Shown here: piece by piece, positions 1 to 40,708 of the stretch | Layout of the letters: each line of letters begins with the position of its first letter | How positions within the stretch are numbered: position 1 is the stretch's first letter | DNA from: a virus | Virus record (IMG/VR): IMGVR_UViG_3300045988_144682 | Reading direction: 5' to 3' (one strand) | Length of the DNA stretch: 64,000 nt | Program-made: the position numbers and the translations under genes | The notes under the pieces: model-generated | Told to the model about the DNA's origin: nothing | The model's database searches: none | What the model saw: only the letters and a program-made list of their open reading frames with translations

Positions 1-145
1 TTACAGCATCAATGTTTTCATCTGTTATTATTCCAAGTTTAATAAGTTCATTGACAACAGAACTTTTTATTTTATCAGGAACATCATCTAAATTTTTTTC
101 TCCATTTTTAACAAGGTTAGTCCAAAAATTTGTTAATTGAATCAT
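1..145 (-). CDS. hypothetical protein, C-terminus cut by window edge
   Basis: ATG at 145-143 lies six nt after GGAGG (rc of 152-156). Frame stays open to position 1 (MIQLTNFWTNLVKNGEKNLDDVPDKIK...). Confidence 0.4.
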   Translation of the reverse strand, partial: MIQLTNFWTNLVKNGEKNLDDVPDKIKSSVVNELIKLGIITDENIDAV

Positions 146-155
146 ATAATCCCTC

Positions 156-428
156 CTATAATAAAGAACTCATTTCGATAATGCAGCGTTTCATTTTTTC
201 CATTTCTGTCATTTCCCGAATGATAAATCTTGTATGACCGTCTTCTTGCCAAATATTTGTACATATCATATCGGCATAGTCAACGCCACCTATATTAACT
301 GTTGTTAAATTGTTATCAGACAAAAGTTCCATATTAACCACATCGTCTGTTATATAATTGTTTCCATTCATTGTGGCGTGAATCTCTGTTTTGTCTGCGA
401 GGATAATATTGTAAATAGTATTTTCCAT
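156..428 (-). CDS. hypothetical 90-aa protein downstream of DGR RT
   Basis: ORF with GGAGG 8 nt upstream of ATG 428. Overlaps the RT 3' end by about 95 nt. No recognisable domain. Confidence 0.55.
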   Translation of the reverse strand: MENTIYNIILADKTEIHATMNGNNYITDDVVNMELLSDNNLTTVNIGGVDYADMICTNIWQEDGHTRFIIREMTEMEKMKRCIIEMSSLL

Positions 429-1656
429 CTATAAAACCTCCAAATAAATCAAAATAAAGAAGATTCAAATTATCTCGTTGTATTTTACTCATTAAATGAG
501 CATGACCGCCCATCCATGCACGAAACATATTCTCAACTTCTTCTTGTGTACGTTCTCCACGTATAACTTTTAGACTAAGTTTCTTTAATTTTCGCCTCAT
601 ATCAACAATTCTTCTTGGATTTATTTTTCTAATAACCCTACCAGTATCGGTAAGAGAATAGGTGATTTGCAGAAATTTATAGTAATCTGATAATTTTACG
701 ATTCTTGTCTTTTTGCGATTGAGAGTCATACCTAATTCTTTTGCTTTTTCTGCAATTTCTATTTCAAGCTGTACTAAAAATTCTCTGTCACGGTGGATAA
801 CATAACTGTCATCCATATACCTTCCATAAAATTTCTGACTTTTTACAATTTTTACAAAATTATCTACAGGTGTTGGATAAAAGATACCTATAATTTGAGA
901 ACATTGATCCCCAATATTTACAGATTTGCGCATATACTTTTCGCCAGTATGAGCAGATTTAGGAATTTTCAATCTATATTCAGTTGAATTAAATGGAACA
1001 TTCATACAATTTGAAAATTCTTCATCATTCATATACGAAACATCAATTTTAAAATTATCAAAAATCTGTTGTAACAACCAAAGAGAAAATTCATCATTCA
1101 CATGCTTGGCAATTTCTCGATAAGCTATATCATGTGGAATATTATCGTAAAACTTACTATAATCCATCAATAAAATATATCCGTCATTACCATACATTCG
1201 ATAATATTTATGTAAATGTTCTTCAAAGCGTTTTCGACTAAAATCAATGCCTTTGCCCTTAAGAGAAGCACCATTATCATAGATAAGATAATCTATGAGA
1301 GATGGAGATAAAACGTTATCACAAAGAGAATGACGAATTACTCTGTCAGACATTTGTAGTCCTGTAATTGGTCGAACTTTACCACGTTCATTGATAATAA
1401 ATTCAGAAGATGGTTTTGAATGATATTCTCTATTCTTTAACAAATCCTTGGTTGATACAATATTAGGCAAAAAGTCAATTCCATACTTTTGTACTTGTGG
1501 TTTCCAATCAGAATCTTTCTTGGCTGCGAGAAATGCAGAATATAATGAGTTCAAATCATATACAATATTATCTACATTGTCTTGAGCATTTTCTTTATTC
1601 ATTTCATAATCTTTTCTTTCATAATCATATTTATTTATATTTGACGTATATAGCAA
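334..1656 (-). CDS. DGR reverse transcriptase
   Basis: 440-aa ORF with RT motifs, including the DGR-type IGDQCSQ and YMDD. Lies immediately downstream of the template repeat. Start uncertain (TTG 1656 or ATG 1602). Confidence 0.9.
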   Translation of the reverse strand: MLYTSNINKYDYERKDYEMNKENAQDNVDNIVYDLNSLYSAFLAAKKDSDWKPQVQKYGIDFLPNIVSTKDLLKNREYHSKPSSEFIINERGKVRPITGLQMSDRVIRHSLCDNVLSPSLIDYLIYDNGASLKGKGIDFSRKRFEEHLHKYYRMYGNDGYILLMDYSKFYDNIPHDIAYREIAKHVNDEFSLWLLQQIFDNFKIDVSYMNDEEFSNCMNVPFNSTEYRLKIPKSAHTGEKYMRKSVNIGDQCSQIIGIFYPTPVDNFVKIVKSQKFYGRYMDDSYVIHRDREFLVQLEIEIAEKAKELGMTLNRKKTRIVKLSDYYKFLQITYSLTDTGRVIRKINPRRIVDMRRKLKKLSLKVIRGERTQEEVENMFRAWMGGHAHLMSKIQRDNLNLLYFDLFGGFIDGKYYLQYYPRRQNRDSRHNEWKQLYNRRCG

Positions 1657-1778
1657 TCAGTCGTAACGAATTGCATCGTCTTTATCTTTTTGCGTATTAT
1701 ATAACACACGCAAGGACAACTTCTCCTTTCTTCGTTTCCTGTATCTGCATATAGCATAGTTAAACAGGCAGAAGAAAT

Positions 1779-1891
1779 CGGGCGAACACCATTAGAATTA
1801 GAGGCGTTGTTGTTGTTCGCATTACCGTTGTTGTTCACATTAGCGAAGTTAGTCGCACTCCTCACACCACGAAGCCAATAGTTGAAGCGAC
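1779..1891 (-). repeat. DGR template repeat (TR)
   Basis: 113 bp matching 2671-2783 at 99/113 positions. All 14 mismatches are at T on the plus strand, i.e. A on the coding strand. Rich in AAC (Asn) codons. Confidence 0.9.
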
Positions 1892-1935
1892 AAAACAGTA
1901 CATAAACATGTAGAAGTAGCCCTAATAAAACAGAA

Positions 1936-2565
1936 TTATGAGGTTGATAAATCAGGTGTTATGATAGTCACCCATAATTCTTTTAACAAATTATAAGATT
2001 TACGCAACTTACTTTCAGTAAGCTGCCCAGTTAATTCTTTCTCAAGAATCTTCTTACGAACCTTATTATCAGATTTACGCCATCCTTTAATAAGTTGTTG
2101 TTCATGAACAATCATTTTTGTGATTGTCTCATATTTTTCTATATTTACATGAAGAGTAGTAATAACATACTGCAATTCCTGGATCAAATTTTCACAATAT
2201 CCAATTGCTAAATCTTGGTGAAGTCTACGTTCATCGCATTCACAAAGATGTTGCGGATATATTTCATTTGCAAGAAATATTTCATGAATCATATTTCTGC
2301 ACAAATTTAATATTGATTTTTGTTCATCTGGTATGAACCATTCAATGAACGCTTCATAGCGTTCCTTATTCTTTGCTACAGATTTATCATAACCATCCTT
2401 TTGTTGTTGACTCCATTTACTGTATGTTTCTGGTTTAGGCTTTTCAACGTATTCTTTTAATCCAAATTTACGAAGTGCTAAATCAGTTATTACAGTTCTA
2501 ATTTTATATGCATAATGTTCAACTTCAAAAGGAGAGGGCTTTTGATTAGCTTTTAGTACAGACAT
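1936..2565 (-). CDS. DGR accessory protein candidate (Avd-like by position)
   Basis: 209-aa helical ORF with an AAGGAG RBS, sitting between the target gene and TR as in canonical DGRs. Longer than typical Avd; homology not verifiable by eye. Confidence 0.5.
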   Translation of the reverse strand: MSVLKANQKPSPFEVEHYAYKIRTVITDLALRKFGLKEYVEKPKPETYSKWSQQQKDGYDKSVAKNKERYEAFIEWFIPDEQKSILNLCRNMIHEIFLANEIYPQHLCECDERRLHQDLAIGYCENLIQELQYVITTLHVNIEKYETITKMIVHEQQLIKGWRKSDNKVRKKILEKELTGQLTESKLRKSYNLLKELWVTIITPDLSTS

Positions 2566-2587
2566 TTTAATCTCCTTCGATTTGTAG

Positions 2588-2625
2588 CTGTAACACCACC
2601 CACCTAAAGGTGGATGGGATTACAG
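2588..2625 (-). promoter_or_regulatory. hairpin downstream of VR (possible DGR cruciform/homing enhancer)
   Basis: CTGTAA-CA-CCACCCACC-TAAA-GGTGGATGG-GA-TTACAG. About 15 bp of stem, 4-nt loop, no T tract. Starts 27 nt past the target stop. Confidence 0.45.
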
Positions 2626-2652
2626 ATATTGTTTTATATTTCCGTCAACATC

Positions 2653-3585
2653 TTAATTAACGAAGAAGAGCGGGCGAACACCAAAAGAATGAGAGGCGTA
2701 GCTGTCGTCCGCATCACCGTCGCTGTTCACATCAGCGAAGGCAGTCGCACTCCCCACACCACGAAGCCAATAGTTGAAGCGACGGTGAATGTATTCTGGT
2801 GCTAATGCAAACAATGGAAGCTGAGAGTTGATACATCCAACTTCATAGCCACTATCAGCCCATACTTTAGTTCCATATACCATTACTTCTGACATCAGTT
2901 CAACTTTGCAGTCATACCACGCCCAACCCGAAGATTGTCCGTCAGCAGTAGCATTCGGTAAAATATCTCTGTATGATATAACATGAGAAGATCCAAAATC
3001 ATTTACAATTTTCTGAGTAGCTTGTGCAAGGTTAGATGTTCTCATATCTGAGTTTGCATATGCACCAGTTGTATTATTTGCTGTGCTTCCAGATTCATAC
3101 TGTCCGCTATCTGTATTATGCATTTGTGCGTTATATAAAGCAGAATCAGGAACAAGGCACATATTATTACCAATTGACACATTATCACCACAGTTTTTAA
3201 TAATGTTAAAACCAGCAATTCGGTAAACAGTACCATTGATCGTCAGATAATCTCCAACATATAAATCATCAAAAGTTCCATCTTGAATAGCTTTTGACAT
3301 AGCTGAAGTATAAGAAGTCCCAAGATTCTTGCCTCTAAAAATAGAGTTGTGACCAGCAGCACTGTTTCTTACAGAACTTTTATAAAGTTCATTGACAGCC
3401 GTTGGTAACGTTTTTGTACCTTGATCGAGTCCATAAGTTTTTGAAGATAATTTGTTTAAAATTGTTGTTGCGAGATTCGCCAAAGTGATACCTTTAGTTC
3501 CGTTTGCGCCATCGACAGCAATGACATCAGAATCGGAAGGAGTGGTAACACTAGAAAGATCTTTTATTCGAGTCGTATTTGCCAT
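2653..3585 (-). CDS. DGR target: tail fibre / receptor-binding protein with C-terminal variable region
   Basis: 310-aa ORF with GGAGG RBS and a phage-fibre-like N-terminus. The last 38 codons (YWLRGVGSATAFADVNSDGDADDSYASHSFGVRPLFFVN) are the VR copy of TR. Confidence 0.85.
   Translation of the reverse strand: MANTTRIKDLSSVTTPSDSDVIAVDGANGTKGITLANLATTILNKLSSKTYGLDQGTKTLPTAVNELYKSSVRNSAAGHNSIFRGKNLGTSYTSAMSKAIQDGTFDDLYVGDYLTINGTVYRIAGFNIIKNCGDNVSIGNNMCLVPDSALYNAQMHNTDSGQYESGSTANNTTGAYANSDMRTSNLAQATQKIVNDFGSSHVISYRDILPNATADGQSSGWAWYDCKVELMSEVMVYGTKVWADSGYEVGCINSQLPLFALAPEYIHRRFNYWLRGVGSATAFADVNSDGDADDSYASHSFGVRPLFFVN
2671..2783 (-). repeat. DGR variable repeat (VR)
   Basis: Counterpart of TR 1779-1891 with 14 adenine-specific substitutions. 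Ends 16 nt before the stop codon. Confidence 0.9.
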
Positions 3586-3603
3586 AGTATATTTCCTCCA
3601 TTT

Positions 3604-5520
3604 TTATATACCAAGTATCTTTTCGATATTTTTTAAGCGTTCATCATACGCTTGCAATTTCATCTCATCGTAAAGCAATCTGACAATTAAAAAATGAGTA
3701 TACTCAATACAGTAATACTCATCTTCATCATCAGGATTAAGTTTTCTTGTATCTAACATAAGTAACTTATCGGCTACTCCATGTTTTTGAAATGATCGTT
3801 GTAGATCTTGTGCCAAAATACCGACATAAAGTACCTCATGGTCATAATCTGGTGCAGACATTCTAAATTGTTTGAACGGCACTTCTCCTACTGCGTCTAT
3901 GATATTTTGTACAATTGGTTCAATATCACGTTTCATTCTTCTATCTGAAAGTGAACCACTCCATGTTCCATCAAGAAATCCCTTTCCATTTTCTGCTTTG
4001 ATATGTATACCATCAGAATTTGCGTAGATACGCCCACGTTTTCCTTGAGTTCCATTATTATTATAGTACCAATCAGACCATCCATATCCACCGGGTGTAT
4101 TTTCATTCATTAGATTTACACCTTTAAAAATACGCATCAGCATAGCACAATCAAAACCAGAGCGATTAGCGGTTTTTCCAAACGCAATACCATCACCACC
4201 AGCTTTATAATCCATAGTTGCGAAGCCGTTTGATAATGTCATTGTGGCTGTGGCTTCACGACCTGCTTTATCTCGAATGACAATTCTGATATCGTATGCT
4301 TCAGTGTCCGAAACAGCGATAACACGAATATCATTAAGAGATAAGGAACTTGTACTGATATCTAGGTTTGTCCAAGCGGATTGCCCTGCAATTCTGTATT
4401 GTAGGACAGGAGTGAGCGTGTTGCCGGATATACTGCTTACAGAACCTTTGGCAACGATTTTAGCATGATCTCCAGTATCGTCTGATACGAAATTACTGGT
4501 AGTTGTTCCAGTACCACGAGATGCTGTGATAGAAGCGGATGGGAGACTATAATCAACTACCGTAACATCTAATGCAACAAATGCAGAACGACCTCTACTA
4601 TCGGTAGCAGATACTTTGACAACTTTTGTTCCTGTCTTTGTAAACGCATCGAATGTATATTCCGTTCCGCTTGATGCTGTTTTATCTGACATATCAGTAA
4701 CGGATATCTTCAGTGTTTTTATGGATGACCCGTACACACCAGAAGCAGTAGGTTTTACCTTAACTCCAGAAAGCAACTTCGCATAACATCCAAACGTATT
4801 ATTCGTATTGGAAAGCGATGCAATATTGCATGTAGGAACTACGGATGCCGGGAGATAAGCAGTAACTGACACAGTTTTCGTACCAATCTTTGTGCTTCCA
4901 TTCATCGTATCAACAGTGAATGTTAATGTTCCGCTTGTCGCATTCGGTATCTGACCAGCATATTTTGCTATCGTAAATCCATTCCATACGACATTATCCA
5001 CACAAGAGTTCGTTACTACTTCTGACTTATTTCCGAATGTAGCTGTTACCTTATGTGTAAAGTTCGCTTTCTTGTTCATATGTATGGTTATTTGATCGCC
5101 AATGTTTACCGAAGATACGCTTGAAGGCCAGTTGTTTACAGAGGGCTGCGATGCTCTTGGTATGGTGTCAAGAGACCAGCTACCACTTCCGTTTCCAGTA
5201 CCATCTGCGTAATAGTAAATAGCACTAGAAATACTTGCTGAAAAAGATTGCGTACCATTACTGTTATGACTAACAGTAACAGATCCACTACACAGCTTTC
5301 CTTTATATTGTTTCCATCGACCAGTGTTGTTATAAACTATGTTCCCGGCAACAACTACCTTACATGGTCCAGTCATATACCATCCAGCACTACCTCCTAT
5401 AGCTTCGACAGTATAAGAGATTGTAGATGTATTTGCGCCAACATTTTGTGAAGCAGTCCAGCTGAATTTCCAGCATCTTCCTTCGTATCCACTGGTCGTA
5501 AAACTTCCGCTTAAAGCCAT
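3604..5520 (-). CDS. tail fibre with C-terminal S74 intramolecular-chaperone (autoproteolytic) domain
   Basis: 638-aa ORF with GGAGG RBS. C-terminus carries LSDRRMKRDIEPI...ILAQDLQ, typical of the peptidase S74 chaperone. N-terminus resembles siphovirus DUF859-type tail proteins. Confidence 0.8.
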   Translation of the reverse strand: MALSGSFTTSGYEGRCWKFSWTASQNVGANTSTISYTVEAIGGSAGWYMTGPCKVVVAGNIVYNNTGRWKQYKGKLCSGSVTVSHNSNGTQSFSASISSAIYYYADGTGNGSGSWSLDTIPRASQPSVNNWPSSVSSVNIGDQITIHMNKKANFTHKVTATFGNKSEVVTNSCVDNVVWNGFTIAKYAGQIPNATSGTLTFTVDTMNGSTKIGTKTVSVTAYLPASVVPTCNIASLSNTNNTFGCYAKLLSGVKVKPTASGVYGSSIKTLKISVTDMSDKTASSGTEYTFDAFTKTGTKVVKVSATDSRGRSAFVALDVTVVDYSLPSASITASRGTGTTTSNFVSDDTGDHAKIVAKGSVSSISGNTLTPVLQYRIAGQSAWTNLDISTSSLSLNDIRVIAVSDTEAYDIRIVIRDKAGREATATMTLSNGFATMDYKAGGDGIAFGKTANRSGFDCAMLMRIFKGVNLMNENTPGGYGWSDWYYNNNGTQGKRGRIYANSDGIHIKAENGKGFLDGTWSGSLSDRRMKRDIEPIVQNIIDAVGEVPFKQFRMSAPDYDHEVLYVGILAQDLQRSFQKHGVADKLLMLDTRKLNPDDEDEYYCIEYTHFLIVRLLYDEMKLQAYDERLKNIEKILGI

Positions 5521-5541
5521 ACAATACCACCTCCTTTATGG

Positions 5542-8500
5542 CTAAGAATTTATTGCCCCCCCCAAGTACCTAAATGACAGGTTGCCATTTGAACGTGGGA
5601 TAAAAGCAAATTTTCCAAGTTGCAATCTATCTAAGATTTCAGCATCCGTTACATACAGCTTATTGTTACTGAAATAAGCAACTTCATCTGTTCCTTGGTA
5701 GAAACTTAACTTTTGCTCGCTCAACAGCATTGATAACTGCATAGACGGATCTTGGCTAGAAATCTTTCTTGTAATACGCAGTCCGGCATCTTCCATAGAG
5801 AAACATTCAGTCGTTTGCTCTATACTTTCAACTCTTCCGTTTATGGCATCAACACGAACAATGTATGTATTGACATCAGTTTGTACCTTATCAACTTGTT
5901 GTTGTGTCGTGACATTACTTTTCCGGATTTCTTCTATACGCCCATCTTCGCCGACCAAATCATCAAAGTCTTTTCTATTTGAAACAACATCATTGATTAC
6001 ATCAGAGATAATCTTCTTCAATTCGTCAGACATATCACCAGTAATCTTATCTGCGTAATCTGTTAAATCCTCTGGAGCAGGGTAGTAGTCTGTAGGACGG
6101 TTTCCTTTTTCCAACTGGATATAATCAATTGCATAATAGTCATTACTGTTCATGTTATCTGTAATTCTAAGCACATTTGATGTCACCCCAACATTGCCAG
6201 TAGAAATCAACTGACCTGAAGATGTAACAAACATGTCACGATTGTCAGATACAATATCAAACTCTGTATCTTCTAAAGTCAGGACGGTGTAAACCTTGTT
6301 CCATCCAGATGTAAGCTGTATCTGTTGCATATCAGTTGTCTGCATTACACCATTCGTATTTGCAAGGCAAACATTGAGTGTCATATTTTGACGAGAATAT
6401 ACATTCATTGATACCGTCAGTTTCGTTCCAAGTTCCGTAGCAACCAAATTGTCCGTATATACTTCGTAGTACACAGCCTTGGCAGCATTTGAGCCAGTTC
6501 CAGGCTGTACCTTGATTACACGCTTTGCATCAATTTCAGCTTCAGAAATAGAATATACTTTGTCAGTTCCATAATAATGACAACCTTCAAGCTGGTTCGA
6601 TTTCTTCAACAGGTTTCTTGCTCCGATAAGCATGTTTGAACTATCAACTAAGATAGGAACTGTCTGAATATCAAGTAGATTATCTTCAGTTGGAATTTGA
6701 TTAGCTTTGTGCATTTCTATAGTGTAAAAAGCTGGCATGTTAGCCTCACCATAAATAGTAAATATTTGTTCGGAAATATTATTTGATGAACTTATAATTT
6801 CTTCTGTACGATTATCACTATAAGTTTTTGATATAATAAAACGGCATGGGTAAACAACTCGATCACCATCCCCATCTCTATAATATCCTTTTGCTTTTAT
6901 CGTATCTGGTGTGATAATATTATTTCCGTCAATTTTTACAGCACTTGTATCAAGTTCTAAGAAATAAGTTCTTCCGGCATCACCAACATCACCTTGTTTT
7001 GCATTAGTATATGAGACAGTAGAGTTGCCATCTGAATATTGAACGGTTGTTCTTGTCCAAAGGTACATGCCATCTACTAAATCAGGGATTTCATCTGACC
7101 ATTTATTCGTTACGAATAAATTAGAAGAATTATCAATCAATGATTTTCCATCATTTGTAACAAGCTCAACTGATTCTGGAGGAACAGAAGAATTTTCTGT
7201 TGTGGTGATATATTCTACTTTAGTAGAAGTGATAGTAACATCATCACCCTTGATTTTTGACCAAGTGTAATCTGTGGGATTTTTACTATCTGTCTCAATA
7301 TTGTCAGTATATTGTCCGATATATTTTTTATTTGTTCCATTAACTGTATCAAAACCAGTTTTACCGTCAGAGGAATCGGCATAAGCTATATGAATATATC
7401 CGTTTTCACCAGGAACGCCATTTTCACCTACATATTTAGACCACTTATATTCGCTTGATTTTGTTGGTGCGATTGAAGTGGTAGTTGATGCTATACCAAC
7501 ATATTTTGTCGTTGATGATGGAGTTGCAGTCATTCCAGTACCATTTGCATCAGTAGCATAACGTACCCAAAGGTAAGAAGATGTACCATCGAAATAATCT
7601 ACACCCTTAATAGGTGTCTTTCCGTCCGTTCCTTTAATTAAAGTCCACGTATATTTTGTCGAATCATCACTATCGGCTTCAATATTATCGGTATATTGAC
7701 CAATGTATTTTTTACCCATTCCAACTGTTTTACTAAATCCAGTTTTGCCATCGGCAGAGTCAGCATAAGCAATATGAACATATCCATTCTTTCCAGGAGT
7801 TCCGTTTTCGCCTACATATTTCGACCATTTATAATTGCTTATTGTAGTTGGCGCAGTGTTTGTTGTGGTAGTCGCAGTACCTATATATTTTGTATCTGCA
7901 CTTGGAGTCGTAGTCATACCACTTCCATCAGAATTAGCGGAGTAACGAATCCATAAATATGAAGATGTACCGTCAAAATAGTCAACACCTTTTACTGGTG
8001 TTTTACCATCATCACCCTTGATTTTTGACCAAGTGTAATCCTTATAATTTCCACTGTCTGCTTGTGTATTGTCGGAATATACTCCAATATAAATTGCACC
8101 AGTAAATTCGGATTTAGAGAATCCTTCCTTACCATCAGCACTCATGGCGTAAGCAAAATGGACATAACCATTTTTACCTGGAATACCATCTTCACCATCT
8201 TTACCAGCGAACTTAGACCATACATAAGAATTTGCAGAGTCAGGATCTTTTATTACATCGTTGACACAAATACCTATATAATCAGAAGGAATTTCTGAAA
8301 TTTGGTCATCTGTAGGATTTGGATAAGCAGAATATTTTATATGGACATAATTACTTGAACCATCTCTACCATCACGTCCATTGATACCGTCTTTACCGTC
8401 AGTTCCATCAATACCTTGTCTCGATACACTGTATGTGACGGTCGAATTTCCGTCTGAATAATTTACAGTAGTTCTCGTCCAAAGATAAGAACCTTCAATT

Positions 8501-11500
8501 ACATATGGAATAGAAGATAACCATTTATTCGTTGCAATTTCATTTCCATTACTATCAACAATATTTTTGCCATCACTGGTAGCAAGAGAATTTGCTTGCG
8601 GTGGTGTAATTCCGTTATCGCTAGGAATATATACAACTTCCGTAGAAGTAATATATATACTATCTCCGTCTTTACCATCATCGCCCTTAAATTTTGACCA
8701 TGCATATTTTTTATAATCTGTACTGTCTGCTTTGATATTGTCAGTATATACGCCTATATAGGTTGCACCTTCATACTCACAAACGTTAAAGTTTACACTT
8801 CCATCGGCAGATTGAGCATATGCGAAATGCACAAAAGAATCTTCACCATCTTTTCCATCTAAACCAGGTGTTCCATCAGCACCGTCCTTACCTGAAAAAC
8901 GACTCCAAGTATAAGAACTTGCAGTAATAGGATCGTTTAAATTTGTATCAACACAAATACCAATGTACGCAGCCGGAACTTCTGTCAACATATCATCAGT
9001 AGGATTTGCTACAGAACTATATTTAATATGAATATAAGTGCTAATACCATCCTTACCATCTTTTCCTGGAATACCTTGTATTCCTTGTCCACCAGTTGCA
9101 CCAGCTTTAAGTTTTGCAATACGCAGCTTTTTACTTATGGCAATTTTACCCATATAAATGAGATCAAATACTACTTCTCCACGGTCGGTAGACAGTCCCT
9201 TTAAGGTGTAGCGATATTTAGTTTTATCCCATTCACCAGTAACACCACTTGTTGCAGTGATTGTCCAAGATAAGTCTGATGACTTTGTGATATCAGTGCT
9301 TCCAGAAAATACAGTTACATTTGTATAGCAATCCGTAAAATTACCACCATTACCATTGGAATCAGTCGTAATGCCTATATATTCATTGTCAAGTTGAACC
9401 ACAAGAGCAGATGCTTCTTGCTTGATTGTTTTATCAATATAAGAGCCAAGATCATCACTGGTTGTCATCTGAATATGTTTGCCGTTAATTTTGATATTTC
9501 CATCATCATCGACATATACATATTTAGTGTAAGATCCATCTTCGTTCTTTCGTTGCAAAGTAAACAAATCTTTATTTGTATCGTTTGCGTCCGAAGTAAC
9601 AGTAAAACCATTTTCGTCAATTTTTACTGAACCAGAAGTGTTATAGATTCCAACTTTATTTCCGAGAATAATGTTACCGACAATTTTATGAGCGATAATT
9701 CCATAGTCCTCTTTGTATGTACCAGATTCAGGATCAAAGTAAATATACTTACCAAGTCCAGTTTGAACAGTCTTCCAACCATCGTTTGTATAGTAAAAGC
9801 CATGATTGATTATTTTTGTTTGCTCAGAACTGTAATCATCACCAAACTCATTTTTTTCACGCATGAGCAAACCAGTCTCATCCACAACCATATTTTGATT
9901 GTCTGCAGCATTTACAATTTTCTTGTTAGTAAGGTTTAATCCATTTTCAACCATATCCATGATTTGTTTGTTGGCATTATTACCCTTATTCGCTTGATGC
10001 TGCACCATTGAATATGATGTTGACATAGACTGAGCTTGTGATAAGATACTCTGGATATCAGAAGCAGAATTTAATCCATAGGTTACATCAGAAAATTCTA
10101 CATTCAAAGAATCAAGATTATCATAATCAATCTTATATGAAGTCAAACGCAATTTATAAATTGTTTCATCAATCTCTATACGAACCCAATTACCAACATC
10201 AAAATTTACTAAGAGTGGAGAAAATGTTGCATCACCTTTCACGAAATATAATTGATCGTGTGACACAATATTTACACCAGCCAAAGTAACAATTGGAACA
10301 GGAGATGATTCAACATCTTGTTCTTTTACGAGTAAAAAGTTACTCAAATTACAACTAATGGTGTGTTGCAAAGTAGCAGATTTTACAATTTCACGTTCCG
10401 CATTTTTGATAAATTCTTTGGCTTGCATAATAAGTTCTTTGTCTGACAATCCATCAGAAATGAAATTATCATTCTTATATGTGTCATCACGTCTAAATGA
10501 ACAAAACTCAGTCCAAAGTGAATTCCCAAGATAAGTATGCAAATCCAAATTATTCGCAATAACCTGACGCTGCTTTTCGATATAATCAAGAACACCTTCT
10601 GGATTACTTTTAGAACCACGCAATTTCAGAATTTCAGATTCACGTTCCCTCAACTCATCTTCAATCCATATGCTTTTACTGTAATATGGATAATACATTG
10701 ATTCATACATATCATTTTCTGGATCAGCAATACCTTGTTGAATTAGAATGTCTAAACAACCTCTTACAATACTTGCAAGAATATTCAAATTATCGACACT
10801 ATAAAAGGACAAAGCCTTTTTGAATTCAGCCTCGTCCTTTTTAAATAAAGCAACTGTTCCAGTAGCATCAACATCATTTTTTTTCATTGCTTTTTCAAGC
10901 TGACATTTAATAAAATCCGATGTAGCATCTGATACATATATTGTTATAATTGATGTGGTTGCCTTATCATTCTCATCTGCATAACTTGATAGAGTGATAG
11001 TTCCTTTCCAAACATTCCCACTGTATGAATCATTTGTTGCTGTAATTCTATACAATGATGTGTCTACAAAAACTTTCGCATAATTTTGTAGAGCCAAAGT
11101 AACCGTAGATACAGACGCTTTATTGGCATTTTGAATACCAAGAGGTGAAAGCGTATTGGTAGTCAATTTCTTGATTTCTTGTGCAGCCGTTGTTTTCGTC
11201 CCACGTTCTGAGACTGGTGCAAGAGTAGTTTTTAATAAACTGTAAAAATTTAAAGCAGAATAATATAAATCTGTTAAAGAAGAATACCCTACAATTGGAT
11301 ATTTCACATTCATTAAAGAACTATCGTACAACTTATATTTATTGATTAGTGTATTGTAATCACTAATAACAGTAGATGGAATATCAATTTTTTTATCTGA
11401 TGAATATGAAGCATATTCTTTTTCGTAAGTAGATAATTTGTCACGTAATGTTTTTGACATATCGGCACGAACAGAATCACTAAAATACCAAATATATTGA

Positions 11501-12420
11501 CTTCCGCTTGGATTTATATTTCTAATTGTGGCTGTCATTAAATCATCACCAGCGACCAAACGAAAACAGTTTTTTACTTCATCCTTATTTGAAGAATACG
11601 AAATATTTCCGGCGAAATTTTCATGGCTTAAAAAGATACCACTATCTGAACCATATCCAAATTTAATATTAGCAGAGTTACATTTGGTACACATTTTGTT
11701 TGTGAATGTTCCACGTTCTCCACATTCCATACAAACATCGTTTAAATCATAAACAGAAATTGTCCTGTGGATTTTTCCATCATTATTGACAGATTCGCCA
11801 TAAACAAACAAACATTCTACTTCATTTGCGATATCATCAAATGCGCCTTTTATAGTAGAACCATCCCATGAAAATGTTCTTTGCAAATTAGCGATAGAGG
11901 AATCTACATGAACAATTGTATAATGGGATGCTTTATCTTTTAAAATTCTATCTAATGCAGATCCTTCTGGATTAGTTGGATCATATATAATAGTAGGGGT
12001 GTAATCGTCCCTTGCAATATCATCCTCTGTGTTGATTTCAATATCATTTAAACTAAGCTGTCCAAGTTCAGCTTCTTGTAAATGAACACCTTGACAGTGT
12101 TTTATAGTAGCATCATCCTCATCTGTTTCAACGGAAAGTTCATACCACGGATTAAAAGATGCTGTGTCAAGATGTGGGATATAGATCAATCTAAAGTCTC
12201 TAATGTCGTTCCATAATTCACATGTAACATTATCAACCTTTTTATAAACATCAAAAGTAATTTCAGCAGCTTGTGCAAGATCATTTTTATTGGTAAGTGA
12301 TTGAACATTATGAATAATTCCTTGTTTTGTCCCACCACGATAAGCCAATACGAGATCAGGTGCAATAGGCTGTCCATCTGGACTTATTTCTATAAGACCA
12401 CCATATAAAGAAGTATTCAT
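5542..12420 (-). CDS. giant tail-associated (Tal-like) minor structural protein with collagen-like repeats
   Basis: 2292-aa ORF. Its start overlaps the Dit stop (TAATG). The N-terminus follows Dit as in siphovirus baseplates. Gly-X-Y runs (GIQGIPGKDGKDG) and duplicated ~190-aa modules are present. Confidence 0.75.
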   Translation of the reverse strand: MNTSLYGGLIEISPDGQPIAPDLVLAYRGGTKQGIIHNVQSLTNKNDLAQAAEITFDVYKKVDNVTCELWNDIRDFRLIYIPHLDTASFNPWYELSVETDEDDATIKHCQGVHLQEAELGQLSLNDIEINTEDDIARDDYTPTIIYDPTNPEGSALDRILKDKASHYTIVHVDSSIANLQRTFSWDGSTIKGAFDDIANEVECLFVYGESVNNDGKIHRTISVYDLNDVCMECGERGTFTNKMCTKCNSANIKFGYGSDSGIFLSHENFAGNISYSSNKDEVKNCFRLVAGDDLMTATIRNINPSGSQYIWYFSDSVRADMSKTLRDKLSTYEKEYASYSSDKKIDIPSTVISDYNTLINKYKLYDSSLMNVKYPIVGYSSLTDLYYSALNFYSLLKTTLAPVSERGTKTTAAQEIKKLTTNTLSPLGIQNANKASVSTVTLALQNYAKVFVDTSLYRITATNDSYSGNVWKGTITLSSYADENDKATTSIITIYVSDATSDFIKCQLEKAMKKNDVDATGTVALFKKDEAEFKKALSFYSVDNLNILASIVRGCLDILIQQGIADPENDMYESMYYPYYSKSIWIEDELRERESEILKLRGSKSNPEGVLDYIEKQRQVIANNLDLHTYLGNSLWTEFCSFRRDDTYKNDNFISDGLSDKELIMQAKEFIKNAEREIVKSATLQHTISCNLSNFLLVKEQDVESSPVPIVTLAGVNIVSHDQLYFVKGDATFSPLLVNFDVGNWVRIEIDETIYKLRLTSYKIDYDNLDSLNVEFSDVTYGLNSASDIQSILSQAQSMSTSYSMVQHQANKGNNANKQIMDMVENGLNLTNKKIVNAADNQNMVVDETGLLMREKNEFGDDYSSEQTKIINHGFYYTNDGWKTVQTGLGKYIYFDPESGTYKEDYGIIAHKIVGNIILGNKVGIYNTSGSVKIDENGFTVTSDANDTNKDLFTLQRKNEDGSYTKYVYVDDDGNIKINGKHIQMTTSDDLGSYIDKTIKQEASALVVQLDNEYIGITTDSNGNGGNFTDCYTNVTVFSGSTDITKSSDLSWTITATSGVTGEWDKTKYRYTLKGLSTDRGEVVFDLIYMGKIAISKKLRIAKLKAGATGGQGIQGIPGKDGKDGISTYIHIKYSSVANPTDDMLTEVPAAYIGICVDTNLNDPITASSYTWSRFSGKDGADGTPGLDGKDGEDSFVHFAYAQSADGSVNFNVCEYEGATYIGVYTDNIKADSTDYKKYAWSKFKGDDGKDGDSIYITSTEVVYIPSDNGITPPQANSLATSDGKNIVDSNGNEIATNKWLSSIPYVIEGSYLWTRTTVNYSDGNSTVTYSVSRQGIDGTDGKDGINGRDGRDGSSNYVHIKYSAYPNPTDDQISEIPSDYIGICVNDVIKDPDSANSYVWSKFAGKDGEDGIPGKNGYVHFAYAMSADGKEGFSKSEFTGAIYIGVYSDNTQADSGNYKDYTWSKIKGDDGKTPVKGVDYFDGTSSYLWIRYSANSDGSGMTTTPSADTKYIGTATTTTNTAPTTISNYKWSKYVGENGTPGKNGYVHIAYADSADGKTGFSKTVGMGKKYIGQYTDNIEADSDDSTKYTWTLIKGTDGKTPIKGVDYFDGTSSYLWVRYATDANGTGMTATPSSTTKYVGIASTTTSIAPTKSSEYKWSKYVGENGVPGENGYIHIAYADSSDGKTGFDTVNGTNKKYIGQYTDNIETDSKNPTDYTWSKIKGDDVTITSTKVEYITTTENSSVPPESVELVTNDGKSLIDNSSNLFVTNKWSDEIPDLVDGMYLWTRTTVQYSDGNSTVSYTNAKQGDVGDAGRTYFLELDTSAVKIDGNNIITPDTIKAKGYYRDGDGDRVVYPCRFIISKTYSDNRTEEIISSSNNISEQIFTIYGEANMPAFYTIEMHKANQIPTEDNLLDIQTVPILVDSSNMLIGARNLLKKSNQLEGCHYYGTDKVYSISEAEIDAKRVIKVQPGTGSNAAKAVYYEVYTDNLVATELGTKLTVSMNVYSRQNMTLNVCLANTNGVMQTTDMQQIQLTSGWNKVYTVLTLEDTEFDIVSDNRDMFVTSSGQLISTGNVGVTSNVLRITDNMNSNDYYAIDYIQLEKGNRPTDYYPAPEDLTDYADKITGDMSDELKKIISDVINDVVSNRKDFDDLVGEDGRIEEIRKSNVTTQQQVDKVQTDVNTYIVRVDAINGRVESIEQTTECFSMEDAGLRITRKISSQDPSMQLSMLLSEQKLSFYQGTDEVAYFSNNKLYVTDAEILDRLQLGKFAFIPRSNGNLSFRYLGGAINS
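7000..9105 (-). repeat. internal duplicated modules of the Tal-like gene
   Basis: Repeated protein units (collagen run - YVHIKYS..NPTDD - YIGICV - WSKF - GYVHFAYA - YIGVY - YTWSKIKGDDG; LWTRTTVxYSDGNSTV). An exact 32-nt repeat occurs at 7241-7272 and 8009-8040. Confidence 0.75.
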
Positions 12421-13605: not shown

Positions 13606-16600
13606 TTACCACTTATATTTATTTTTGGCTAATGTGCTTTTACCAGCAACAACACCAATCGTCATAGCTTGAATCATATCTTCAAACTTTTCATCCTTTT
13701 TTGCACGATTCATAAATTCCTCATAGTTTGTTACATTTGGCAGATTAAATGTAACTTCACCTATGCTGTTATTATTTACACGCATATAAGGTTCAAGACC
13801 AGAAAGAATACCATTATTAAACAAGTTCCCACTAATAAATCCAGACGGATCGCTTGCCATATCCCATATGTTTCGTGTGGCATCGGCGGTAAGCACACTG
13901 TCACCTTTTGCGATATGAGTTACAATAGCGTTCTCAGATGGCTTGACAATAGATTCACTACCAAGCTCATTTACCCACGCATTTTCAGCTTTCGGAGCAT
14001 TTTTCAGACCGACAGCATATTTATTGTAATGATATGGTGAAAGATCACGGATTCCCTGGTATCTACCAACCCACGCACCAGAACGTACATAACCTTCTCT
14101 GCCCATCTGATTTACGATACTTTGAACTCTATTGGCATCAAAACCTTTAGCTTGCAAACGGCTAACTCTGGTATTTCCAGTTCCCCAACCATAGTTACCG
14201 TTCCAAATAGCAAGAGCAACACCATAGTAATCCTTATCGGTTCGTGCCGGTTTTAATGGTGTAGAAGGAGTATTGTTTGACGGTTTTGAAGGTTGACTTG
14301 CTGGTTTACTTGCTTCCGTCTGTTTCTTTGTGGCTTCCGCTTTAGCTTTCGCCTCTGCATCTGCCTTTGCAATCAAAGCATCAGTATAAGCCTTAATACC
14401 AAGAATCGCATTCAATGTAGAAGTATTCTGTGTTAAGAACTGATCGCCATATTTAGAAATAACAGTGAAAGCACCACCATCATTCGTCCAGATAGAATTC
14501 ATGGTTTCTGACAATGTATAGCCAACATTTGCACATTCTTGTTGAATTGTATCGCTAATAGAAGATGAATTTGCATTGATTGAATCAATCATGTCAGATA
14601 AAAAAGCATCAACGTTATCCAATCTTGCATTAAGAGATAACTCATATTCATTATACAAATCATCTAATAATTTTTTCTGGTCTGTGATGTATCTGTCATA
14701 CTCTGTTTCTTGCAATTCTTCCATAGCTTTTGATAAATCAACCTGAATTTTCTGAATTGTAGCTTTAGTTTCCTCTGAATTATCTCCGGCATAAGCTGAT
14801 AACTGTTTCTGCAAAGAAGCAATTTCATCAGATTGTTCTTTTACCTTTTTCTGATAATCATAGAGGTCTTTTGCACTATCCAATGAATCTGTATAAGCAT
14901 CTATCAAATCTTTGAGAGAATCAAGCTGCGCTTCAATTCCGTCTTTTACCAAATCAATCATAGCCTGTTTTTCATCTTCGGCAGCAAGAATAGATTTTCT
15001 CTGTAATTCGAGAAGTTCCTGTCTACGTTCAATGAGGTCAGTGTTATATGGATCTTTAGCAATTTCCGCATTTAACTCTTTGATAGCTTTGGCATATTGG
15101 TCAGCTTGTGCCATATCGACATTGTAATTCTGTCCATGTAATCCCATAGTTGCCATGCCGGTATCTGTCATTTGACCTTTATCATCAAATAACTTTCCAT
15201 TTGCCATTAAGTCAATGAGAAAATCTGCTTCATCGGTAATATTTGATATACGGTCTTCCATATAATCAAAATATTCCCAATCAAGCTCACGCATTGTTTT
15301 CTGATATTCAAGCAGCGAGAGATTAGATTCATCAATTGCCTCTTTGACATCATTGATGCTTTTCTGCATCTCATACCATTGCTCAGAACCCTTTTCGATT
15401 TCACCAGAAGCCATTGCCTGATTGAAAGATTCCGTTAAATCAACTAATTCTTTTTGGAGAATTGCCTGATTTTCTTTTTCAGCTTTTTGGAGAGCTTGAT
15501 AATAAACCTTGCTTCCTTTTAAGCCTTTTGCTTCCAGTGTATCAAGCCCAGTGTTATATGTATCAGTCAAATGTTGTACAAGAGCTAACTGGTTATCAAA
15601 ATCAGTGGAAATGTTACTGAATCTGTCAGCATATAACTGGGCGATTTCTTCATGCAAATCGGCTACAGCGTCTTTTGCTTCAATCGCTTTTTCATAAAAG
15701 TCTTGAAAATCCTTAATCTTATCAGACAAGTCTTCATCAGTAATCGTGGATATATCAATCGTGCCATTCTTTACCTTGTCCATCCAGTCAGATGATAAAC
15801 CGACAGAATTAGCCTGTTGCATATATCTGGTGTATGCTTGATTCTGAGTATTGATTTGCTGAGTGATTAAAGAGATTTCATCGGCAGCAGTACTATTACG
15901 TTTTACCAACGTTTTGAATGCACTTTCTGCTTTTACTTTTACTCTGTCAATCGCTTCACTGATTCGATTTATGGCAATTTCAATCCAGTCAAATGTTTCT
16001 TCAAAATCTTTTTCTGTTGAAGAACTGCTTGAACTAGAACTTGATTTACTAGAAGAAGATGATCTTCCACTAGAACCGCTTGATTTTCCAGAAGACTTAC
16101 TACTTGATTTTCCAGAAGACTTACTACTTGATTTTGATGAAGAACCGCCACTTGTAGAAGGAAACCTCCAACCACTAGCATAAGCAGTACCACCAAGATA
16201 AGAACGTCCCCTAGAGTTAATCTTGCCACTTGATAAAAGTTGGCGTGATTGCTCTGCATCGAATACAATAGAACCTTCTGGAATATGGGCAAATTCAGCA
16301 CCACGATCTCCGACAGTCCACCATTGATTACCATTGACAACAATTTCTTGTCCTTTTTCACCGGTTAAAGCATCTTCAGATACTTTTGTCTTCCAACTGT
16401 CTTTAAGCCAACTTGTATCAAACAATGTTCCAGAAGCTCTTGCCGTACCACCATAACGAGCAGTACCAAGTAATTTACCCTTTCCAGTAGAAGAATATGT
16501 ATCTATATGATGCGTATAGATATACATATTTGAGGTTTTGCCATTTACACCATTCAAAGCAGAAGCAGCACTACTAGCAACAGAAGTTGCATTTTCTGTA

Positions 16601-19340
16601 GCTGTAATATTTGCCTTTGGTGATAATTTCGGTTGCAAAGAATTTAAAGCATTGTCTACAGTCTGGATTTCGCCAGTTGCAGTATCAGTAATGGAAATTT
16701 CACCATTCAAATATGCTTCTTTTTGTTCTGGTGTAAGAGAATTCCAAGTATTGATAACCCATGTTGCTTGATCTTCGGCAGACAATGATGCAAATTTTGG
16801 ATTTGCACTTGCATCATTCCATAACTGAATCAACTGAGTTGCATAATCTTCTGAGTATAAAGCACAAGTTTTAGAAATTAACTCACGTTTATTAACATCC
16901 TCGATTACAGGTGTTGCTTGATCTTCCGCAAGAATATTAAATGTGAGTGTATTATCTTCACCTTGTAAAACCTCTATTTTTTTCTGAACACCATCAATTT
17001 CGGCGGTATAAGTAATCGTACCGTCTTGATTTTTAAGAGCCTTTACTTCATCCTCAATGCCATCGCCATCAACGTCAGCATTAAATGTAATAGAACTTCC
17101 AGAAGCAAGTTGCTCAAGTTGTGATTGAATTTCATCAGTTGAAAGTTCCGCATTAACATGAAGCTCTTGAGGTTTGCTAAAGAAATCTTCCCATGCACTT
17201 TGTACTTCTTCTATAGAACTGTCAGTATTGATTTCTGGGTGAGTTTCAGAAAAAGCATTGAGTATGGATTTTTGTAATTCTTGAGTATTCTGGATTTTCG
17301 CTTGAATCTCAATAAATTTATTACTACCATATTCCTCTTTTGAAAGCTGGTCGTATAAGTCATTGATTGTATTTTCATTGACTTTTATCTTAGCTTGTAC
17401 TTCTGCAGAAACATTATCAACTTGTAAACCTTGTTTGGCAGTAGTGAGATATTTTTGATTGGCAGCCAATACCTCTGCATTCGTATCTGCATTTTTACCA
17501 CCTTGTCCAGATTGTTTTGCTGTCAGTTCATCAATCTGAGCCTGAATAGTAGAAAGGTCATATACAAATTCGATATGTACAATCTGGTCTTCCGTGAGTT
17601 CTGTCATATCATCTTGATATTTTTGATACTCGTCATCCCAGTTTTCAATAAGACTTCCAAGATGTTTTTTAAGCTGTCCGTCTTCCATATCTTTGTAAAC
17701 AGAATGAATTCCATCAAGTGCAGTCTTATATCTGTTTAATCCTTCAGCACTGAATACAACATCGTCAAATTCAGCACCATAAGATTCAAGACTATGCATA
17801 AGAGACTCAGTAGCCTCAACACTAATTCCAAGTTCTTTAGCAGCAGCAGCACTATTCTTGAATTTCTTTGTCCAAGAAAATTCGCCATTATCTTTTGTGG
17901 CAAATCCGCTCTTAACCAAATCATCGGCAAAATTAGTTACACTCTGAAGTGGGTTATCACTATCAAAGTATCGTTTTATTTTCTGCTGTGCTTTCTCCCA
18001 ATATTCAACATAAGCATCAGCATCATATTTATAATCATCTGGATTTATTTTTCCATATGTCATAAATTGGGCAGCAGTTTGGAAATCATCTGTGCCAACT
18101 TTGCCTTTCTTGTAAAGCTCTTGTGCTTTACTCAAAGCATCTGCCATATCAGTCCAATCTTGATCCTTATTTTTAGAATCCATTGCAGCTTTTACGCCAG
18201 CGATAGAACCATCTACACCAATAATTGCTTCTGAAGCTTCATCGGCACTTGCAGCTAAATCATTGAAATACTTCGCAATATCGGAAGCGTCCACACCATC
18301 AATGGCAATTCCCATACGCTTAATATCATCCGCTGTAAGTTCTGCCTGTTTTGCAGCTTCAAGGAGATTATCTTTAATGAAGTTTTTGCCGGTACTTCCA
18401 TCAAAGAAAGAATTGATTTTATTTAATTTCTTCTCTGCTTCTGATAAATCAACATTATTGTAAGCATCAAATAAATCATTTATACGATTTACAGTGTCTT
18501 CATATCCTGGAAGTACACTACCGTCTGTAGAGAAAAGAGAAGAGTAGTTTGAGTTAATTGTCTCAACATCTTCACTAACTTCTTTTTCCAAGTCACTAAC
18601 ATCTGATTTGAGATTTTTAAGCTGCTTTGTCTTCTGCTCATACTCAGTATCAGCTTGCCAGAAATGCTTATGATATTCCGGCTCCATGTTAGCAATTTCT
18701 TCTTCAAGTTTTACTTGCTCTGCTTTCTTCTCATTAAGTTTTTCTTGTTTAGATGTAGCACGATCAATGATATCACCAGACATATATTCCATGATTGGCA
18801 TACCATTGGTATCAGTCATCATATATCCATTTTTATCTTTAAGGAAATCGCCAGTTTGCCATGTTAAATCTTTCGTCAAAACATGGTTCGCATCTTCGGC
18901 AGCTACACCTTGTTGATAATTAGCAAGTTTCTGTTTGATTGCTAACTGTCTTTCAAGCTGGTCGTTTTCAGCCTGTAACTTTTGTAATTCAGCCTCTTCG
19001 GTTATGGTAAGAGAATCCATAGAGTTTAACTCATTGATTCTGTCCTTTACCTCTGAAAGCCGAGACTCTAAAGATTCTACTTCACTTGCTGTCTGTTCAT
19101 AAGCACTACGAGACTTATCGGCTTTTTCTACGGCTTCATCAAATGATTCTGTGACAAGATCGACTATGGCAACAACAGCAACGATGCCAGCAGCAATAGC
19201 AAGAAAGCCACCTAAAGCAGCAGTAGATATACCTATCGCACTAGCAAGACCTTCAAAACCTAATGATGCTGCAGCAGCAACATCACCTAAAGAAGTTAAG
19301 CCACCAGCAGCGGACATAGCACCAATAAGATCTTTTATCG
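13606..19340 (-). CDS. tape measure protein, exon 2 (C-terminal ~1911 aa)
   Basis: Long ORF without its own RBS. It continues the Gly/Ala hydrophobic segment of exon 1, then long coiled coils, a Ser/Lys low-complexity run and a CW_7-like motif (IWNGNYGWGTGNTRVSRLQAKGFDANRVQSIVNQM). The exon boundary is inferred. Confidence 0.7.
16081..16135 (-). repeat. 24-nt perfect tandem repeat in Ser/Lys-rich tract of TMP
   Basis: TGATTTTCCAGAAGACTTACTACT occurs twice (16081-16104, 16105-16128), followed by a 7-nt partial copy. Encodes the SSKSSGKS repeats. Confidence 0.85.
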
Positions 19341-19347
19341 CCAATAA

Positions 19348-19374
19348 TAATCTTGCAAATAATAATAGTAATAA
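19348..19374. repeat. left arm of 27-bp inverted repeat
   Basis: Reverse complement of 19962-19988 with one mismatch, including 19 consecutive perfect bp (19348-19366 / 19970-19988). Confidence 0.9.
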
Positions 19375-19385
19375 ACAGATTTTTG

Positions 19386-19394
19386 TGATATAAT
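19386..19394 (+). promoter_or_regulatory. extended -10 promoter (TGATATAAT) for the intron-embedded plus-strand gene
   Basis: TGnTATAAT lies 33 nt upstream of ATG 19427. AAGGAG RBS sits 7 nt before the ATG. The -35 is weak. Confidence 0.5.
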
Positions 19395-19426
19395 TATAAA
19401 TAATATCAAACAATAAGGAGAAAAAT

Positions 19427-19960: not shown

Positions 19961-19961
19961 A

Positions 19962-19988
19962 TTATTACCATTATTATTTGCAAGATTA
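19962..19988. repeat. right arm of 27-bp inverted repeat
   Basis: Pairs with 19348-19374. Starts 2 nt after the stop of the 177-aa gene. Confidence 0.9.
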
Positions 19989-20047
19989 GATATGCTACTT
20001 CGTGTATTGGACTACAATGACAGTTTGGTTACTGACGAGCATATCAA

Positions 20048-20075
20048 CATGACTATGATATAATCATGTTTTATC
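20048..20075 (+). terminator. probable intrinsic terminator of the plus-strand gene (same hairpin as intron P9)
   Basis: CATGACTAT-GAT-ATAATCATG (9-bp stem) followed by TTTTAT on the plus strand. Confidence 0.45.
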
Positions 20076-20383
20076 CGACTGTCTATCACACTTGCCTATG
20101 GCAAGCGAACTCCCTTACAGTCTGTGAACCTTCCCGTTTATCACAAATTCCAACGTGATACAAACCTATAAAATAGGAGAGGGGATTGGATGCTGACTAT
20201 CCATTGTCCTATACAGTATACTTAGCATTATTTTTTAGCATATATACATTTTGACGTATAGTGTAAATTCAAACTTTTTTCTGCATTTCTGCGACTATCA
20301 CGCCTATCCGTTAGGATTACGTTGTAGCGTTGAATTGTTAGGATTTCCCAGCAGTTTGAAAGTTTATGCATCTATGGACTCGC

Positions 20384-37715: not shown

Positions 37716-37766
37716 TTGTCAAACCTTCTTTCTTTATGCAATTTTTCCACTATAGAATAGTGGGAG

Positions 37767-40706: not shown

Positions 40707-40708
40707 AA

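Follow-up and report, generated by a model that had tools for sequence, protein, structure and literature searches.

The left end of a 64,000-nt stretch of the virus record IMGVR_UViG_3300045988_144682 (the whole stretch is called the window here) raises the question of whether it holds a complete diversity-generating retroelement (DGR), and, if so, whether this element is active and what kind of protein it diversifies. The original prediction, made from the letters alone, had placed such an element at positions 334–3585, with a template repeat (TR), a reverse transcriptase (RT), an accessory gene and a variable repeat (VR) at the C-terminal end of a fiber-like protein. Based on the results described below, we conclude, with a probability of about 0.93, that the locus is a complete, real and very probably active DGR of an approximately 115-kb tailed phage of gut Lachnospiraceae-type Firmicutes. 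We identify it as a DGR because of the residues of the RT, the TR/VR pair that differs at adenines only, the Avd-like gene, the hairpin after the VR and the variation in the population. All features of the cassette lie on the minus strand, and the order of target, accessory gene, TR and RT is the one that had been claimed.

The TR (1779–1891) and the VR (2671–2783) form one 113-nt direct repeat with 88% identity and no gaps, which was the sole long direct repeat returned by the repeat finder for the first 6 kb. Read on the minus strand, the two copies differ at 14 positions, and all 14 are adenines in the TR (A>G at nine, A>T at three and A>C at two positions). The alignment of the original prediction was thereby reproduced exactly. 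Adenines make up 30 of the 113 nt of the TR, and 14 mismatches placed at random would all hit them with a probability of 5.3e-10. The proportion of TR adenines altered in the VR (14 of 30, 47%) agrees with the misincorporation of ~52% reported for bRT, the RT of phage BPP-1 (PMC7826257). The VR occupies codons 268–305 of the 310-codon target gene (2653–3585), a stretch of 38 codons, as described earlier, that is followed by five more. The TR is non-coding in the window and begins 44 nt downstream of the stop codon of the accessory gene. Both copies share a GC-rich 3′ end, GGTGTTCGCCCG, beyond which their flanks diverge. A search of the 64-kb window for matches to the non-adenine positions of the TR revealed no second VR.

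In the frame of the VR, the TR reads ...NFANVNNNGNANNNNASNSNGVRP and includes nine AAC and four AAT codons, in line with the earlier remark that it is built of AAC codons. The adenine-bearing codons are these 13 AAY codons plus TAT, AGG, AGT and ACT. All 30 adenines occupy codon position 1 or 2, and a stop codon cannot be reached by adenine mutagenesis from any TR codon. The theoretical repertoire amounts to 1.2e18 DNA variants and 3.7e17 protein variants, and it is the placement of the adenines at codon positions 1 and 2 that yields ~3.7e17 variants without any stop.

If the element works as proposed, variation of the VR in the population should be confined to the positions of the TR adenines. 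This expectation, which the original prediction had named as its check, was tested on public assemblies, all comparisons being made between assemblies, and it held. In an alignment of the window target protein with its 35 closest homologs (75–95% identity), the mean column entropy was 2.42 bits in the 17 VR codons containing a TR adenine. The 21 VR codons lacking a TR adenine averaged 0.19 bits, and the remaining 267 residues of the target averaged 0.37 bits. For the 11 closest sequences, the respective values were 1.94, 0.02 and 0.09. Around the cassette, the aligned segments of two contigs, L001 (from Logan) and L002 (from IMG/VR), match the window at 96.5–98.7% identity. L002, with 98.7% identity over 4982 nt and an identical TR, differs from the window in the VR at 20 positions, of which 19 are TR adenines. 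L001 has a TR differing by 2 nt and a VR with 20 differences, all of them at TR adenines. Taken over the window and 29 related loci with the same cassette, 489 of the 508 TR/VR mismatches are at TR adenines. Some clusters of target proteins built at 90% identity hold more than 2,700, and up to 2858, distinct member sequences. Since near-identical genomes already differ at 20 VR positions, there is strong evidence that the element diversified the lineage of the window very recently.

The RT gene (334–1602) encodes a protein of 422 residues. Its open reading frame (ORF) is open upstream as far as a TTG at 1656. The ATG at 1602 is most likely the start, because the gene call in L001 also gives 422 residues. 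The RT matched RVT_1 of Pfam (2.6e-14) and the reverse transcriptase family PHROG 1423 (4.7e-58), and L001 encodes an RT with 100% identity to it. The top PDB sequence match was 8ub7, a chain of 328 residues deposited just as 'Reverse transcriptase', which we take to be the bRT of the Bordetella phage DGR. In this alignment, IGDQCSQ (895–915, residues 230–236) falls on IGSLTSQ, YMDD (808–819, residues 262–265) on YMDD, and motif A, LMDYSKF (1150–1170), on SDFSKF. Moreover, R77 and I230 align with R74 and I181 of bRT, which promote adenine mutagenesis (PMC7826257). The RT thus has the signature [I/V/L]GxxxSQ, which in DGR RTs replaces QGxxxSP (PMC7826257), together with YxDD and the motif A aspartate. 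Both of the motifs that had been named, IGDQCSQ and YMDD, are in place, and the conserved catalytic residues are retained on proper alignment. It should be mentioned that a 90-aa ORF (156–428, minus strand) without a family match overlaps the RT gene at its end, by ~30 codons, and that L001 has a 71-aa gene call at the equivalent position.

The accessory gene (1936–2565) encodes a protein of 209 residues that matched PHROG 3206, 'Avd protein of DGR', over residues 84–185 (E = 1e-7), and the same profile was matched by 29 of its 40 relatives. The protein consists of this Avd-like core, a conserved N-terminal segment with an extra stretch and a variable C-terminal tail, and in related loci its gene always stands between the target and the TR. 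Based on the profile match, we regard it as Avd-like. A Pfam scan of the 40 relatives gave no match to PF05635 or any other Avd-type family, and the candidate accessory ORFs of the phages nd12, Roos and Fontainebleau were not recognized as Avd by Pfam. No signal was obtained when the accessory profile was compared by hhalign with the 128-aa gene at the Avd position of nd12. A match to KtrA from the PDB was dismissed as a short, low-scoring stretch. In several distant relatives (P0218, P0222, P0224, P0225 and others; alignment A3), the ORF continues into the TR and ends in C-terminal ...NFANVNNNGNANYNNASNSNGVRPDF, so that in these relatives the TR is formally within the accessory ORF.

Downstream of the VR, in the intergenic region between the target and the accessory gene, lies a GC-rich hairpin, CCATCCACC-TTTA-GGTGGGTGG (2596–2617, minus strand), with a 9-bp stem in the DNA fold. 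It stands ~53 nt past the end of the TR/VR homology, the distance in relatives being 16–56 nt. A perfect-stem hairpin of at least 6 bp was found downstream of the VR in 24 of the 30 loci, and the same search found none downstream of the TR in any of them. The window, L001 and L002 carry a G.T-containing version. There are approximately nine distinct stem sequences with complementarity preserved in all, i.e. the stems covary, and the loops are TTTA, TCCG, CTCGT, CTTGT, TTCA and TATAT. The hairpin of the window has no T-run and was not called as an intrinsic terminator, and a promoter/terminator scan stayed at chance level. In BPP-1, a hairpin/cruciform after the VR is required for homing (Guo et al. 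2011, PMC3240598). By analogy, the hairpin at 2596–2617 is a candidate DGR target-recognition hairpin or cruciform. The homology has a GC-rich end, a hairpin follows the VR, and no hairpin follows the TR, which is the arrangement expected of a marker of the target site.

Immediately 3′ of the TR, positions 1689–1777 (minus strand) are predicted to form a structured RNA domain that belongs to the 'spacer' of the DGR RNA. Folds of the individual sequences, divergent members included, gave a common architecture with a UUUC.../...GAAA closing stem. The closing stem, UUUCUUC/GAAGAAA, encloses a variable inner stem-loop, which according to lineage is, for example, CCUGU/ACAGG, CUUGU/ACAAG, GAUAUCC/GGAUAUC, GGCAC/GUGCC or CCGUGC/GCACGG. 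The domain also contains an AAGGA/UCCUU hairpin (1712–1728) and a short GC hairpin (1692–1711) with AAA after it. In the related loci, the GC hairpin is often capped by GGAA, GAAA or GUGA and followed by CUAAA. Even loci with just ~40% protein identity have the blocks CCG|AUUUC and GAAAGGAGA...GUCCUUGC in common. RNAalifold on a MAFFT alignment recovered just two short helices because the inner stems were out of register, and the folds of individual sequences were used instead. Compensatory changes were seen by RNAalifold in the third (last) hairpin. No Rfam family was detected in the cassette at gathering or permissive thresholds. A structured RNA has been described around the complex of bRT and Avd, and for 207 DGRs Avd-binding stem-loops were reported a short way 3′ of the TR (bioRxiv 10.1101/2023.10.23.563531). 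From this BPP-1 ribonucleoprotein (RNP), we infer that the 3′-TR domain may serve as the RT/Avd-binding scaffold.

Which protein does the element diversify? The 310-aa target itself had no significant Pfam or PHROG match, as its similarity to PF19789 (DUF6273) reached 16.9 bits, below the gathering threshold of 23.5, and covered residues 268–309 only. However, PF19789 was matched by 28 of its 46 close relatives at E ≤ 0.01, and most relatives at 38–49% identity carry a precomputed match to this family. The search for target homologs gave 1801 matches at E ≤ 0.001, and a profile of distant members gave 2482, most of them carrying PF19789. Based on this homology, the target is best described as a divergent member of DUF6273. 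An AlphaFold2 model computed from a 150-sequence alignment, including the relatives of 38–49% identity, had a predicted local distance difference test score (pLDDT) of 91.9 and a predicted template modeling score of 0.84. A first AlphaFold model from 46 sequences was unusable (pLDDT 59, below 35 in the VR region). The layout of the protein comprises an N-terminal β-hairpin/helix segment (residues ~1–70) and a DUF6273-type globular domain (~75–310), and the VR residues are located in the C-terminal strands of this predicted domain.

Foldseek matches of the target model in BFVD, with E values as low as 7e-28, included DUF6273 proteins together with entries designated 'Tail-collar fiber protein' or 'Receptor Binding Protein'. 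In the PDB, the sole significant Foldseek match was 9qa6, the IgA peptidase of Thomasclavelia ramosa (E = 6.7e-5). This entry is listed as the whole enzyme, which has a DUF6273 domain at its N-terminus, residues 31–322 (PMC12402451), and this domain is likely the region matched by the target. PDB sequence and profile searches with the target family returned nothing meaningful. The original prediction had suggested a C-type lectin fold and a model as the means of checking it. The model is confident and matches DUF6273, a domain already known as a DGR target and described as C-type-lectin-like (PMC10743442), but canonical C-type lectins matched it weakly, so the link of DUF6273 to this fold is indirectly supported, mainly by the literature.

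The tail-fiber identity that had been proposed stands as an inference from gene position, homology and predicted-structure neighbors. The target is the last gene of the tail module, after the S74-type tail protein, and the lysis genes come next in relatives. Its C-terminal domain (residues 76–309) is 41% identical to the C-terminal domain of ORF23 of Lactobacillus phage JCL1032, an ORF annotated as a tail fiber/structural protein possibly involved in host specificity, and this homology is the best available support. In JCL1032, ORF23 likewise closes the series of tail genes, with the lysis cassette following. Unlike the window target, it has no RT, Avd or TR adjoining and no repeat pair in its locus, i.e. 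it is a non-diversified homolog of the same scaffold. Taken together with the 'Receptor Binding Protein' and 'Tail-collar fiber protein' neighbors of the model, these data suggest that the target is a tail-fiber or receptor-binding protein.

The cassette resembles that of BPP-1 (mtd-avd-TR-brt), the prototype, in the gene order, in the VR at the 3′ end of a tail-fiber gene (a putative one in the window) with differences at TR adenines only, in the [I/V/L]GxxxSQ and YMDD motifs and the R74/I181 equivalents of the RT, in the GC-rich hairpin downstream of the VR (PMC3240598) and in the structured RNA 3′ of the TR (bioRxiv 10.1101/2023.10.23.563531). Unlike BPP-1, the window belongs to a gut phage of Firmicutes, a different host phylum. 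Its target is a 310-aa DUF6273 protein, while that of BPP-1 is the 381-aa Mtd, which was absent from the top structural matches of the target in Foldseek. The accessory protein has 209 residues and was detected by the PHROG profile only, and the RT is ~95 residues longer. The hairpin lies ~53 nt past the end of the homology and has a TTTA loop, whereas the loops of BPP-1-like phage DGRs follow a GRNA consensus (PMC3240598).

DGRs that target DUF6273 proteins have been described in the Faecalibacterium phages Roos, Pioen and Lelie (PMC11792537) and in the phages nd4 and nd12 (PMC10743442). In these phages and in Acutalibacter phage Fontainebleau (ON453893), as in the window, the VR is at the C-terminal end of the DUF6273 target. 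Fontainebleau is the closest deposited phage: its 311-aa target is 37.5% and its RT 40% identical, the gene order and the location between the tail and lysis modules are the same, and 16 of the 19 mismatches in its own TR/VR pair are at TR adenines. Protein identity between the window and any deposited phage is about 27–40%, and megablast of positions 1–6000 against deposited phages (INPHARED) gave no nucleotide-level match. The window differs from the gut Firmicutes phages with DUF6273-targeting DGRs in the size of its related contigs (114–120 kb) and in a cluster of 19 tRNA genes. It has one VR in 64 kb, whereas nd4 and nd12 have two targets.

Directly upstream of the target, positions 3604–5520 (minus strand) encode a tail protein of 638 residues with DUF859 and a C-terminal Peptidase_S74 domain (intramolecular chaperone) according to Pfam, which also matched PHROG 372 'tail protein' (2e-75). 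The cassette therefore follows an S74-type fiber, as had been stated. Compared with its counterpart in L001 (1752–3674), this protein is 76% identical overall. Its last ~200 residues are 99–100% identical, the first ~440 have diverged, and the identity falls to ~35% in the first 120, while the flanking DGR genes are 96–100% identical between the window and L001. This pattern indicates that the S74 protein varies by ordinary mosaic divergence and not by the DGR. The earlier view of one fixed and one hypervariable receptor-binding protein must be amended accordingly: the 310-aa target is indeed hypervariable, but the S74 fiber is not fixed, having diverged over its N-terminal ~440 residues.

The window also encodes portal, large terminase and tape-measure proteins, and in L001 a lysin with Phage_lysozyme2, CHAP and SH3_3 domains lies a few genes past the RT. 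Related IMG/VR contigs are 114–118 kb long. A cluster of 19 tRNA genes for 16 amino acids was found at 37766–42441 (minus strand) by ARAGORN and Rfam in agreement, and it fits a large phage of ~115 kb. Among genomes, matches were obtained to a Ruminococcus metagenome-assembled genome and to a scaffold of Blautia sp. BIOML-A1 (120 kb). The phage probably infects a gut Firmicute of Lachnospiraceae type. In the Blautia scaffold (locus L052, NZ_WWVR01000005.1, 4001–5223), a target gene with 81% identity borders directly on an RT remnant, its final ~97 codons. Everything else of the RT is missing together with the TR and the Avd-like gene, and the VR is left 'frozen', which makes this locus a natural DGR-loss variant.

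Several observations weigh against a complete and active DGR with a fiber target of lectin type. Classical Avd proteins have ~120–130 residues, and the accessory protein of the window is ~80 residues longer and had no Pfam, NCBIfam or PDB sequence match. The hairpin loop, which reads TTTA on the coding strand and TAAA on the opposite one, misfits the GRNA consensus, and the distance of ~53 nt from the end of the homology is a further point of the same kind. A priming duplex between the 3′ end of the TR and the spacer was sought with RNAduplex, and the results were inconsistent between loci, none being convincing. The weaker PDB matches of the target model, namely the C-terminal domain of Legionella Lcl and classical C-type lectins, had E values of 0.1–4. 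Activity in the window genome is deduced from differences between related assemblies, and the cultured-isolate relative L052 shows that the cassette is dispensable. This last case leads to the alternative that the locus is a DGR by descent, inactive in the window genome, with a frozen VR and with the diversity of its relatives being older or coming from other lineages. The window genome is a single sequence, and the loss of Avd, TR and most of the RT from the Blautia isolate relative, which kept the target, means that loss of function does occur in the lineage. Nevertheless, we consider an inactive element very unlikely, since the ORFs of the target, the accessory protein and the RT are all uninterrupted, L001 encodes an RT with 100% identity and L002 has an identical TR, all catalytic and mutagenesis-related RT residues are kept, and genomes 96.5–98.7% identical around the cassette already differ at 20 VR positions.

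Far less room is left for the view that the TR and VR are a remnant of ordinary duplication or gene conversion beside an unrelated RT of a group II intron, a retron or a defense system. The RT does show weak generic matches to group II intron and defense-RT (DRT) models, but these are far below the family cut-offs (56 vs 300 and 23 vs 200 bits), retron models also matched only far below theirs, and PADLOC detected generic RT similarity of at most 58 bits. As the RT has the signature IGxxxSQ and not QGxxxSP (PMC7826257), and the mismatches are solely at TR adenines in the window (P = 5e-10) and at 96% across the 30 loci, this alternative is effectively refuted. The nature of the target leaves more latitude. 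The DGR could be active and the 310-aa protein could be exposed in another role, for example in decoration or in adhesion to mucus, to glycans or to immune ligands, so that its diversification would have no bearing on host-range adaptation. The target lacks a direct annotation and a significant Pfam or PHROG match of its own, DUF6273 also occurs in non-tail proteins such as the N-terminus of the IgA peptidase and Hoc-like 'tentaclins' (PMC10743442), and an S74 tail fiber and a 2292-aa tail protein are already encoded upstream. We regard this as unlikely, although less so than an inactive element, in view of the position of the target at the end of the tail module, after the S74 protein and, in relatives, before the lysis genes, the 41% identity of its DUF6273 domain to the C-terminal domain of JCL1032 ORF23, the structure neighbors named as receptor-binding and tail-collar fiber proteins, and the PF12571 tail-collar fiber domain carried by some relatives.

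Based on the above, we suggest the following scheme for the active DGR, in which cDNA priming, the RNP, retrohoming and the role of the hairpin are taken over from the BPP-1 paradigm. The RT and the Avd-like protein would bind a transcript spanning the TR and its structured 3′ flank. The RT would then copy the TR to cDNA, misincorporating opposite template adenines, and the mutagenized cDNA would replace the VR in the 310-aa target gene, leaving the TR unchanged. The shared GC-rich end of the repeat and the hairpin on the VR side may identify the VR rather than the TR as the copy to be replaced. Because the varied residues are in the C-terminal strands of the DUF6273 domain of a putative small tail-fiber or receptor-binding protein, whose receptor-binding role follows from homology and position, the ligand specificity of the target would be expected to change while its scaffold is retained.

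Other features of the window lie apart from the cassette. The 2292-aa tail-region protein (5542–12420, minus strand) has G-x-x runs of collagen type (GKDGKDG...) along with several modules of ~90–100 residues that are repeated (IKYS...YIGI.../HFAYA...YIGVY...). The tape-measure gene seems to be split (13606–22541, minus strand): an ORF at 20364–22541 (725 residues) corresponds to positions 223–948 of PHROG 4211, and a second ORF at 13606–19488 (1960 residues) to positions 974–2384. For the ~875 nt between them (19489–20363), an insertion, an intron, an intein-like element or a frameshift are all possible. Just upstream of the tape-measure gene, a tyrosine-integrase-like ORF (23011–24045, minus strand) matched PHROG 1 'integrase' (E = 2e-36), and the inside of a structural module is an unusual place for a phage integrase. 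The coding strand and the GC/AT skew switch at ~49–50 kb (window ~48000–51000), being minus before and plus after, which would be either a divergent module boundary or a replication-related switch.

It remains to consider how far the lineage departs from the known pattern. It could be proposed that it forms a distinct mechanistic sub-type of phage DGR, given three features: the Avd-like protein, which at 209 residues is enlarged, contains an inserted segment and is unrecognized by Pfam; the conserved multi-helix 3′-TR RNA, in which a UUUC/GAAA stem is joined by an AAGGA/UCCUU hairpin and by a hairpin of GNRA type with CUAAA after it; and the VR hairpin ~16–56 nt past the end of the homology with non-GRNA loops. 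If this were true, the RNP architecture and the geometry of target recognition would differ from the BPP-1 paradigm. We hold this proposal to be doubtful, though not far-fetched. DGRs are already well described in gut phages, including those with DUF6273 targets, and the long Avd-like protein, the position and loop of the hairpin and the lineage-specific 3′-TR RNA are departures from BPP-1 and no new kind of system.

Existing knowledge of DGRs is unchanged by this locus, which is a well-documented addition to the DUF6273-targeting elements. Its 3′-TR domain and VR hairpin provide comparative data on RNA and DNA signals beyond the Bordetella model, and one phage is seen to combine a recombinationally mosaic S74 fiber with a putative fiber diversified by a DGR. 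The locus represents a clean, intact natural case of targeted protein hypermutation in a large phage, probably of abundant gut Firmicutes, and the population data indicate that a receptor-binding-type domain is rewritten between otherwise near-identical genomes.

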